A stretch of 64,000 bases of DNA from Tubulanus polymorphus (Eukaryota > Animalia > Nemertea), in assembly GCF_964204645.1 (NCBI RefSeq), contig NC_134025.1, forward strand, positions 25,400,299 through 25,464,298, given 5' to 3'. Each line of letters starts with the position of its first letter. The first letter of the stretch is position 1. A model generated the notes under the pieces. The model worked only from the letters and a program-made list of their open reading frames with translations. It did not search any database and had not been told where the DNA came from. Shown here piece after piece: positions 55,148-58,234 of the stretch. Made by a program: the position numbers and the translations under genes.

Positions 55148-58100
55148 TCATTCCAGAGTGAGGGGTACTAGCTCGTCTGTAACTGCGTCAACTGAAGAGG
55201 TAACGTTTGGAATCCACGGTGGGTCGTGCTGTAATAAAATCGTTTGGAATGATGATACCAATTAGCCTGATATATGAAATATAAAAATTCTTATCTTAAT
55301 AACTTACGCGCTTATGATTTATATCGTCCCAGTTAAGTGTCTCAAAGAAAGGATGGACATATATTTCCTTGGCATCTTCTTCACTACCACCCAATCTGAT
55401 TACAAATAATATATGAAAAGAATAATTTGATGTCCCGTCCTATTTGATGAAACAATCCGGGAAAGCATTTTGGCAGCACAATGTGTTAGTAGACAAAATT
55501 ACAAACCTTTCCTTTGGGTTTTTACGAAGAAATCCGCTTAAGAGATTCCTAGCATTATCACTGAGTCTCGAGGGAAATTTTACATCTTCAGTGAGTATCA
55601 ATTCATACAAAATCTCATGATCTCTGTTGTAAAATGGCAAACGACCGCACATCATTTCATATAAAACGACTCCGGTTCCCCACCAGTCAACAGCTCGGCC
55701 GTAATCATTATCATCCAATACCTGCAATAGTTGATCAAATATGGATGTTGACTGTCAAAACGATGTTTTTATAATAGATGGTGTTTTTTTGAGAAATGTG
55801 TAGTATTAGTTTTATTTTAGCGATATCTAGTTTATTTTATATATTGGATTTTAACTTTGTTGTAATTACTGAGCACTGAAATGACATTTCTGTGGTTGAG
55901 TTCCTGTTGGATAAGTCCTTCTGTAAATGTCTTTTCCCTGAATAAGCAGTAGTCATACAGAGAAATCTAAGGGGGAAACTGGTGATTTTTACTCATATAA
56001 TGTGGGTACTTTCCTGATATTTAAATCACACGAATTCTGGTTTAGTGGCATTGCCGCAAAGATTATCAAACGGGCAAGTTGTGTCAGGATTATTGCATTA
56101 TTGTTGAAGAGCTAGATCAGTCTAAAACTCGGTAAGAAATATTCACTTTTTTCTTTTGAATTATGATTTTAGGTATCTTATTCTGAATGTGTTTTATTCT
56201 AGAATTATTAGATTTTTTGATATATCAATTGATTGTTCTGTAATTTGTATTAATGAGTTAGATTAAATGTTTAAAAGAAATAAACAGGCCTATAGAGAAC
56301 TCATATTTTAATTCTGCATTCGATGTTTTATTTGAATAATTAGATTAGTGATTGTCTATTGAAATCATGTATTATATAGCCTATATCTTATGTAACAATT
56401 ATGTGTTTTAAACTTGAAATTTAAGTAGATGTATTCTTTGTATTTTTTAGTTAATCGAACCAAGTCTTGATATATAAGCATTGAGAAAAATTAAACGATA
56501 CCATCAAATATGGATTTGCATAAACGAAAATAGATTGTTGTGTTGTTTCTGCGTGGACATAAGTTATAAAATAAGGTTAAACGGGTGATCCACACTGGAT
56601 TTTGAAAGGTTCCACCGAAGAAGCACATATCAGGGAATTGTTACCTCTGGGGCTAGATATTCCGGAGTACCGCAGAGTATTTCTGTACTGGTTCCATAAC
56701 TTATTTCTTCACCCAGCCCGAAATCGGTTATTTTGATATGACCATCCTTATCAAGCAGAATATTCTCAAGCTAGAAAAAGAATTACATTTCAAAACATCA
56801 AGATTAAACAAAAGGACATAAATAATGCGATATTCCAGCGGATACTTATATACCTTTAAGTCTCTATAAACGATGTTGTGGTCGTGTAAATATCCTAGAG
56901 CGGAAATGATTTCAGCGCCGTAGAATCGAGTTCTCTCTTCTGAGAAAACCTTCTCTTTAGATAAATGAAAGAATATTTCTCCACCGTTAACGTACTCCAT
57001 CACGAAACACAATCGATCTTGAGTTTGAAACGAATATATCAATTCCTAAAAAAGCAATATCTATATAAGCAAATTGAAATATATATTCTTCAACGAGTAA
57101 TTGAAAGACCTACTGTTAAGAACGGGTGCCTTATCTGTGACATTCGACTGTTAGCAAATGTACCTGGAACTACATCCTACGTAAAATGGTAGATGAATAG
57201 AGATGATTAGACAGATAGACTAAAATTGTTAGAATTTTGATTTCCGAACCATTCTTAAGACAAAGTAAGGATTTGTGACTGTCACAAGAATATCCACAGG
57301 TATATAAAGGTAATCAAAATTAAACCTATATCTACCTCGCCGAACATTGCTGACTTATTCAGTAGCTTTACGGCATAGATATGACCAGTAGACTTTTCTC
57401 GACCAAGCATGACCTTTCCAAATGCACCCTTTCCCAGCACTTTCAACATTTCGAAGCTATCCAGCGACTTAAAAAATCGAAAATATCGAAATGAAATATC
57501 TAATCGACGTTGATGTTGAATTCATCGATGCAATTATTAAACAGTCATCAATGCCTACCACTTCAGATTCAGGAGACTTTGGTCGTTCCTCACTGTTCAT
57601 CTGCCCGTTGGCATTTCTTTCCTGCGCTTTCCATGAATCAGCAACTTTCTGTATCGCTAGAATCCATTCCTCTCTGAAAATTAGACGCTCGCTGATAAGG
57701 ATATAGCATGAATGAGGATATGACAACATGCGATTTGAAAAATGTGAATACTACAGTACCGTTCTTGGCTTGTTTCGACATGGAACATTCTTTCTACATA
57801 TGTTGTGAGTTGTAATAGTCTGATGATGAATGTATTTGATTTAGGCTTTTCCGTTCTCATTACATGGCATCCTGCAATACATTTATAATCAATAGAAAAT
57901 TCTCCACGACCATTCTTCAAACTACCTAAATGAAATAGCCTCACCTTTGATTGAAAAGTTATTTAAAGGTTCACCGAGTGATCCTGGCTTAGGCTTTTCT
58001 TTGAATCCGTAGAGGGTTCCATTCTCCCTAAGAATAAAATATCTTGGACGCATGTTTTTTATGTACTCTCCTGAAAAATGTCAAATTTAATCATTTTTCC

Positions 58101-58234
58101 TTTTTAAAGAAATGAAAATTCCAAACTAATTTGAAATTATATATAATAAGGAAAAACTCACCTCTTTTAGTTAGCCAACCTTCTTTGATAGTTTTAAGTT
58201 GTGGTGTTTGAAGTACGGCTTCATTTGTCGCCAT
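55148..58234 (-). CDS. Divergent Akt paralog (~440 aa) lacking the activation-loop Thr, alphaC Glu and hydrophobic motif
   Basis: Same 11-exon structure and intron phases as 38378-40932, GT/AG sites retained, no frameshift found. PH and kinase cores are recognisable (GKGAFG, YAVK, YRDLKLEN, DFG, APE). It ends at a TGA at 55148-55150. Whether it is functional or a young pseudogene is unresolved. Confidence 0.8.
55734..56515. mobile_element. ~756-bp insertion flanked by a 13-bp direct repeat in an intron of the Akt paralog
   Basis: atcaaatatggat at 55734-55746 and 56503-56515. The homologous intron of canonical Akt is ~150 bp versus ~920 bp here. Confidence 0.55.

Follow-up and report, generated by a model that had tools for sequence, protein, structure and literature searches.

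A tandem Akt paralog of the nemertean Tubulanus polymorphus with a released activation module on a conserved frame

The Akt-like locus at positions 55148..58234 (minus strand) of the window, meaning the whole 64-kb stretch of DNA analysed, is a tandem duplicate of Akt in the nemertean Tubulanus polymorphus. The encoded paralog consists of one released module, alphaB-alphaC together with the activation loop, on an otherwise conserved frame, and selection acted on its PH domain and kinase core in the past; it represents a real, well-supported evolutionary pattern from one species. Activation of Akt via phosphorylation of T308 and S473 is regarded as universal. As to the role of the protein, we tentatively prefer, with confidence somewhat short of even, a selected, PIP3-gated and nearly inactive competitor of normal Akt that is recruited to the membrane.

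The paralog and the canonical Akt gene were rebuilt from the window, each with 11 exons on the minus strand and matching phases (Table 1). The exon ends of the canonical gene are all GT-AG, its frame is open, and the rebuilt 532-aa protein shows no differences from RefSeq XP_074659240.1 (P0121). The claim of the initial annotation that all splice sites of the paralog are intact was confirmed, with GT-AG at 20 of 20 sites and an open 440-codon frame. The rebuilt paralog (440 aa) differs from the RefSeq protein XP_074662116.1 (433 aa; P0004) only at the exon 4/5 junction in the linker, and the RefSeq junction can be obtained from the window DNA solely via a non-canonical intron. No more than two Akts from T. 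polymorphus were among the matches of our protein searches. Residues are given in human AKT1 numbering, hand-counted on PDB chain alignments.

Table 1. Features of the Akt tandem array, in positions of the window.
Feature	Position	Strand	Content
Paralog exon 1	58162..58234	-	start codon, N-terminus and PH domain start, including K14; agrees with RefSeq protein
Paralog exon 2	57945..58070	-	PH domain: E17, Y18, I19, W22M, R23, R25, N53
Paralog exon 3	57760..57871	-	PH domain: Q61H, Q79, W80L, R86
Paralog exon 4	57559..57673	-	PH helix and linker; exon 5 joined differently in RefSeq
Paralog exon 5	57336..57467	-	Gly-loop, K179, remodelled alphaB (K182N, V185A, I186M, K189E)
Paralog exon 6	57114..57176	-	alphaC: E191V, A193P, H194G, E198N, V201M, L202S, 3-nt deletion
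Paralog exon 7	56854..57045	-	hinge, alphaD-E, intact YRDLK
Paralog exon 8	56645..56770	-	DFG and APE intact; loop C296G, K297 deleted, K307E, T308I, F309L
Paralog exon 9	55507..55721	-	APE-alphaF loop (D323, D325), C-lobe; nearly unaltered (F358Y)
Paralog exon 10	55308..55395	-	C-lobe end
Paralog exon 11, coding	55148..55228	-	in-frame 18-nt deletion, turn-motif Thr without Pro, premature TGA
Old tail and hydrophobic motif remnant, decayed	55063..55147	-	in frame, two more stops
Paralog intron 8	55722..56644	-	923 bp vs 153 bp in canonical copy
Upstream non-coding block	58614..58755	-	72% homologous to 41342-41486, which precedes the canonical gene; may be a promoter or a 5' exon
Canonical Akt, sister copy	38378..40932	-	11 exons, 532 aa
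Class-V aminotransferase gene copy 1	50719..53152	-	neighbour of tandem duplication
Class-V aminotransferase gene copy 2	60812..63309	-	

The losses that the initial annotation had reported in the phosphorylation machinery are real. DNA alignment with the canonical copy confirms the replacement of T308 by Ile and shows that the K297 codon is deleted; the same loop also carries C296G, K307E and F309L. In alphaC, H194G and E198N stand, as neither alignment register places a Glu at 198, and they are accompanied in alphaB-alphaC by A193P, K189E, E191V, L196F, T197A, V201M, L202S and a 3-nt deletion. Phosphorylated T308 is contacted by R273, K297 and H194 (PMC8379990, PMC6599160), and R273 of this set is kept. 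Among 329 activation segments taken from 337 best-hit proteins, a sample biased to typical Akts, the paralog alone has neither Thr nor Ser at position 308, and on this comparison the loss of T308 appears to be a step without precedent in the segments examined. The tail indeed ends before the hydrophobic motif, at a premature nonsense codon (TGA, 55150-55148), and the AGC-tail hydrophobic motif with S473 is missing. Beyond this first stop, an in-frame remnant contains stops at 55093 and 55081, with F469 turned into a stop and S473 into Asn; read-through as a way of restoring the tail was rejected as pointless given three stops and S473N. The minus strand down to 53200 holds no usable hydrophobic motif, and the one match to an alternative exon, at 54939, is of low complexity and not credible.

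Several changes were absent from the earlier list, namely W22M, T160A, K182N, F358Y, an 18-nt deletion in the tail that spans about residues 436-441, and the loss of the turn-motif proline. In the turn motif (T450-P451) the Thr is present and the protein ends two residues on; K182 has a role in the turn-motif pocket. The new Glu beside position 308, to which the initial annotation had drawn attention, gives weak evidence of a phosphomimic, as a hemichordate Akt (P0125) has E307 together with an intact T308. RD kinases of the phosphorylase-kinase type are phosphorylation-independent and carry an acidic residue at the phosphosite; in the paralog, Ile occupies 308 and the Glu lies at 307.

The retained residues are equally clear. 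K14, R23, R25, R86, the Gly-loop glycines, K179, YRDLKxxN, DFG and APE were all confirmed, and N53 is also kept, which completes the PIP3-binding set (K14, R23, R25, N53, R86) as far as sequence can indicate. E341 and E355 are both present. The autoinhibitory PH-kinase interface, with residues as named in PMC8379990, is kept between K14, Y18, I19, R23, R25, N53 and Q79 on one side and L316, V320, L321, D323, D325, F358 and L362 on the other, with the exception of F358Y. The W80L change listed in the initial annotation is present but not distinctive, since other Akts have L (16/108) or M (8/108) at this position; it is uninformative and carries little weight. Nor does W80 appear critical for autoinhibition, as it was reported to be dispensable, the closed state being independent of both W80 and the hydrophobic motif (PMC8379990).

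By descent, the paralog is an Akt/PKB. Its PH and Pkinase domains score above the Pfam cut-offs, its best PDB matches are Akt1/2, and in two quick trees (43 and 23 proteins) it pairs with the canonical gene, with SH-aLRT support of 99 and 100. Like canonical Akt (human AKT1-3; XP_074659240.1), it combines PH and kinase domains, 11 exons (in T. polymorphus), the PIP3 pocket, the catalytic motifs and the autoinhibitory interface. In contrast, T308, K297, H194, E198, the hydrophobic motif and the turn-motif proline are lost, and the paralog thereby lacks the Akt hallmarks of T308 paired with H194/K297, hydrophobic motif and turn motif; its end branch measures 0.47-0.72 vs 0.01-0.03 (0.72 vs 0.026 with 43 proteins, 0.47 vs 0.010 with 23). 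The label of pseudokinase given in the initial annotation does not apply in the formal sense, under which the VAIK Lys, the HRD Asp or the DFG Asp must be missing (PMC13519141), as K179, D274 and D292 are all present. Pseudokinases without the alphaC Glu (HER3, JAK2 JH2) and competitor pseudokinases resemble the paralog in the absence of this Glu and in a possible non-catalytic competitor role, but they also miss a formal catalytic residue, whereas the paralog keeps all three (PMC13519141). Screens for pseudokinases based on motifs would overlook such a protein. Nor does its sequence resemble that of a pseudogene: the core contains no frameshift or stop, the splice sites are unbroken, stops are confined to the tail, and site-location tests speak against neutral evolution.

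These tests rely on a 115-protein alignment, from which proteins of at least 600 aa were left out, and on the 108 control Akts that were left once five vertebrate models, partial or mis-spliced, had been taken out; columns conserved in at least 95% of the 108 were termed invariant. The paralog has changed 13 of 21 invariant columns in alphaB-alphaC and the activation loop vs 4 of 124 in the other kinase-domain columns. Fisher's test gives p=3e-10 for regions picked post hoc, and a window-scan permutation gives p=5e-5 to 2e-3 for the clustering. Outside the module, paralog-derived changes affect 7/157 invariant vs 29/160 variable columns (p=9e-5), and the deficit at invariant sites persists in a within-exon permutation (p=3e-4). 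Moreover, 24 of 36 core changes lead to residues present in at least 3 of the 108 other Akts, against a neutral expectation of 15-16% (p about 1e-11); some may be mispolarised, though the canonical branch is short. In the module itself, 5 of 22 changes lead to residues used by other Akts, which is neutral-like.

The reading frame tells a similar story. About 90-100 amino-acid-changing substitutions accumulated with zero stops (p 2e-4 to 1e-3), and whereas 440 codons are free of stops, the 29 codons that follow the first stop include 2 more. Coding indels are all in frame (6, 3, 3 and 18 nt in exons 4, 6, 8 and 11, and a net loss in exon 1), whereas 9 of 29 intron indels are divisible by three. 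Because the changes avoid invariant sites outside the module and avoid stops, a neutral history of the whole gene is rejected. All 14 catalytic, ATP and substrate residues are kept, with p=0.007 under simulated drift at d=0.154 and 0.04 at d=0.10. The excess of changes in alphaB-alphaC needs a short branch (p=0.008 at d=0.154, 0.2 at d=0.31), and the pairwise test did not show positive selection in alphaB-alphaC (p=0.14).

Whole-gene pairwise dN/dS against the canonical copy is 0.385 (CI 0.28-0.54). The initial annotation had taken a value near 1 as the sign of decay, which is the wrong null, as a pair of one constrained and one neutral copy is expected at about 0.5; against this null a neutral copy is not rejected (p=0.19), and for this reason the whole-gene ratio was discarded as a test. 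Its compatibility with a neutral copy, together with a possible destabilisation through turn-motif loss and the single species, weighs against a competitor. By domain, dN/dS is 0.08 in the C-lobe and 0.30 in the PH domain; a more conserved C-lobe is not what a pure PIP3 sponge would predict. The proposal of a gene rewired rather than randomly decayed therefore holds for its history, as judged by the location of changes and the absence of stops, but does not cover its present state.

The AlphaFold model of the paralog (76 input sequences; 77 for the canonical copy) has an alphaC helix of 4 residues vs 13 in the canonical copy, a pLDDT under 50 at 178-188 and 283-311, low confidence being no proof of disorder, and a kinase-domain rmsd to active Akt2 (1o6l) of 2.3 Å vs 1.0 Å for the canonical copy, whose kinase domain is active-like. 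An unwound alphaC and a disordered activation loop are thus predicted, and the model together with the loss of the alphaC Glu is no more than suggestive of a protein without catalytic activity, a pseudokinase in the broad sense. Compared with full-length structures, either model gives an rmsd of 9-12 Å, for PH-in and PH-out alike. A C-terminally truncated, autoinhibited Akt1 (PDB 7APJ) was likewise reported with disordered alphaC and activation loop in a closed PH-kinase assembly (PMC8379990). In PKA, an alphaC Glu mutant was reported to retain under 0.5% activity, or 13% with a phosphorylated loop; a mutant that also lacks the His reached over 40% with the loop phosphate but was inactive without it (PMC5130182). 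The paralog combines both losses with the lack of a phosphorylatable loop site. Loss of the turn-motif context, for its part, may destabilise the Akt protein (PMC8379990).

In the competitor that we tentatively prefer, the kept PH-kinase interface would hold the paralog closed in the cytosol, and PIP3 would open it at the membrane. Lacking T308 and S473, it would lie beyond activation by PDK1 or mTORC2, and the exposed, intact ATP/substrate cleft and the PH domain could tie up PIP3 as well as the substrates or partners of Akt. As it would phosphorylate them poorly, the output of canonical Akt might be damped or shaped. The engineered K179A/T308A/S473A Akt serves as a dominant negative (PMC2193272) and likewise has no activating phosphosites; that protein and the PDB 7APJ protein are laboratory constructs, whereas the paralog is a natural gene, retains K179 and has rewritten alphaB-alphaC. 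If true, the paralog would be a natural equivalent of the laboratory dominant negative or, if it is active, a kinase gated by lipid alone. Either way it tests the relative shares of lipid binding and phosphorylation, and the non-catalytic roles of Akt. The three formal catalytic residues and the 14 kept sites, which weigh against a competitor, suit a working kinase equally well.

Such a kinase, independent of PDK1 and mTORC2, turned on solely when PIP3 releases the PH domain, and with low or partner-dependent activity, is in our judgement unlikely. On this view, the pocket left empty by the missing hydrophobic motif would be filled by the new bulky residues M186, F187, F196 and M201 of alphaB-alphaC, and the kept R273 would find its partner in E307 or E298/E299. 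In its favour, the catalytic set is whole although the activation loop changed as much as neutral sequence, and published work points to tolerance of such losses: PKA without the alphaC Glu and His was over 40% active with a phosphorylated loop (PMC5130182), loss of RS3 was tolerated in PKA (PMC3797032), and human AKT2 without the hydrophobic motif was described as retaining reduced activity (PMC7703976). The human form AKT2-13a resembles the paralog in a tail that stops before the hydrophobic motif but, as reported for the human AKT splice forms, these are isoforms rather than separate genes, of reduced activity, in which the activation loop is kept and phosphorylated (PMC7703976). All such precedents retain a phosphorylatable T308, which is Ile in the paralog, and the PKA double mutant was reported inactive when the loop phosphate was absent (PMC5130182). 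In addition, the Pro-Gly pair with which alphaC begins and the unwinding predicted for this helix oppose an ordered active site, E307 coexists with a normal T308 in the hemichordate protein, and the changes in the module look neutral (5/22) rather than tuned.

A sea-urchin duplicate gives this kinase further support. The Strongylocentrotus purpuratus Akt XP_030854897.1 (P0488) is an independent, lineage-specific duplicate with a long branch of its own; it has lost H194 and E198, has Asn in place of S473, and alters 9 of the 15 invariant columns in alphaB-alphaC. It and the paralog each alter 20 of 178 invariant columns, 10 of them in common (p=3e-6, overstated as columns vary in tolerance), with five identical substitutions (V57I, V185A, K189E, V201M, L280I); among the 108 control Akts, which themselves define invariance, the overlap reaches 2 at most. 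In contrast to the paralog, the urchin protein retains C296, K297, T308, the turn motif and the tail. It is probably the Sp-Akt-2 of PMC3654265, since the akt-2 morpholino given there, reverse-complemented by hand, encodes its first four residues. Sp-Akt-2 is described, in passages that do not mention the residue losses, as the more abundant embryonic Akt; its knockdown halts cell division in the embryo, and akt-1 mRNA restores it (PMC3654265). By analogy, loss of the alphaC Glu/His pair is probably compatible with positive Akt function. Because Sp-Akt-2, probably this essential duplicate, functions positively, an active paralog becomes more likely; if this identity holds, the urchin protein acts positively and not as a decoy, which weighs against a competitor. 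That animals repeatedly evolve Akt duplicates which drop the alphaB-alphaC/hydrophobic-motif switch by the same substitutions, with a PDK1/mTORC2-free, PIP3-only nemertean end point, is a conjecture we regard as doubtful. With similar changes present in an Akt that is probably essential to the sea urchin, an established embryo model is available for putting the question to the test.

A duplicate that was once selected but is now silent or decaying, without present function, seems improbable to us. The statistics speak for selection in the past only, decay of the tail is plain to see, intron 8 is larger by about 770 bp, exon 6 shows an M/V difference in run X1, the RefSeq junction requires a non-canonical intron, and the gene is known from a single species. 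Against this stand the 20 GT-AG splice sites and the open 440-codon frame, the RefSeq annotation of a protein (XP_074662116.1), and second-sample contigs (X2, X3; partial cover) that show no disabling change over alphaC, the activation loop and the stop. Contigs of three runs, of unrecorded library type, contain no spliced joint of the paralog. We do not take these runs as RNA, because the X2 and X3 contigs cross introns and one loose contig end resembles a ligation linker. Spliced joints seen in contig mapping were rejected as paralog mRNA and ascribed to cross-mapping of canonical-copy contigs. X1 contig depth was 22-29 over parts of the paralog vs 34-45 over the canonical gene, depth not being copy number. 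Orthologs in other species were absent from the results of the full-length protein search and from shorter proteins, of the exon 8 query among longer proteins (best other match 81%), of the exon 5 query against 50% representatives (best 72%), and from the best 80 of 144 loci in metagenome contigs; these searches had limited sensitivity, and sister species probably lie outside their coverage. The literature searched, mostly outside subscription journals, gave no account of the paralog or of a natural T308-less Akt. If silent today, the paralog would be a well-documented case of module-wise relaxation following duplication, and nothing more.

A pseudogene neutral from birth, with C-lobe exons kept Akt-like by gene conversion, or an assembly artefact, is very improbable and, as to neutrality and conversion, largely refuted. 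In its favour, silent divergence is lower in the kinase than in the PH domain (28/233 vs 17/81, p=0.06). Against it, the differences in exons 9-10 are silent in 13 cases and replacements in 6 (p=0.002), which conversion explains poorly because it removes silent and replacement changes equally, the invariant-site deficit persists within exons, and silent-site runs in the Akt pair are no longer than chance (p=0.40); moreover, the copies are only 76-78% identical, and a single X1 contig (52720-55371) reaches from the neighbouring gene into the last exon of the paralog. The tandem array itself offers the remaining argument for conversion. The paralog sits there with two class-V aminotransferase gene copies, a pair with dS 0.82 outside one exon and introns near the shuffled level; in that single exon the two copies are identical over a run of 201 bp, a sign of gene conversion nearby. 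The Akt pair is more alike, with dS 0.31 and alignable introns that are 56-80% identical, and may represent either a younger duplication or one that was later homogenised.

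At the sequence level, the Akt duplicate of Strongylocentrotus purpuratus represented by the homologs P0488, P0489 and P0052 (XP_030854897-900) converges on the nemertean Akt copy. It carries H194N, E198K, S473N and F161L (human AKT1 numbering), together with a 2-residue insertion in alphaC, and is probably Sp-Akt-2. The portion of the Sp-Akt-2 account consulted (PMC3654265) does not mention the loss of H194, E198 and S473 seen in P0488. In the hemichordate Glandiceps talaboti, W80L and K307E are present in an Akt-like model (P0125, XP_077999768.1), with T308, H194 and E198 unaltered. 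This 439-aa model stops shortly past the turn motif, and its short end may represent either a genuine tail-less Akt or an annotation artefact. Among lophotrochozoan Akts, two alternative tail forms ahead of the turn motif recur in molluscs and others, which suggests, from the compared proteins, alternative exons; the canonical Tubulanus Akt model carries one of these forms.

In the nemertean paralog, the exon 4/5 junction of the RefSeq protein requires a non-canonical intron on the window sequence (57470-57584), and a canonical GT-AG junction there results in 7 extra linker residues. Sequencing run X1 differs at position 57143 in exon 6 (M201 to V, a reversion), and run X2 shows a synonymous difference at position 55211. 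Intron 8 (55722-56644) contains ~770 bp of additional sequence, and several divergent X1 contigs align onto it, which suggests a repeat insertion.

The neighboring duplicated class-V aminotransferase genes, whose product probably resembles Egt2-type sulfoxide lyases, share a 201-bp identical run within a single exon (51601-51830 and 61916-62145), as against a dS of 0.82 (dN/dS 0.12) in the remaining exons; recent gene conversion in that exon is therefore likely. The reading frame is open in the compared blocks of both copies. A weak 36-bp match (E=0.006) between 59448-59482 and 42551-42586 may mark the former segment as a leftover of the plus-strand gene that separates Akt from the aminotransferase in the first copy. 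A long ORF at 32071-33570 may be an ASPP-type gene.

Other plus-strand features in the window
Feature	Position	Strand	Basis or location
RhoGAP-domain gene	19828-23991	+	Pfam
Long ORF without Pfam match	32071-33570	+	ORF
Plus-strand gene	about 42500-50300	+	between Akt and aminotransferase, first copy
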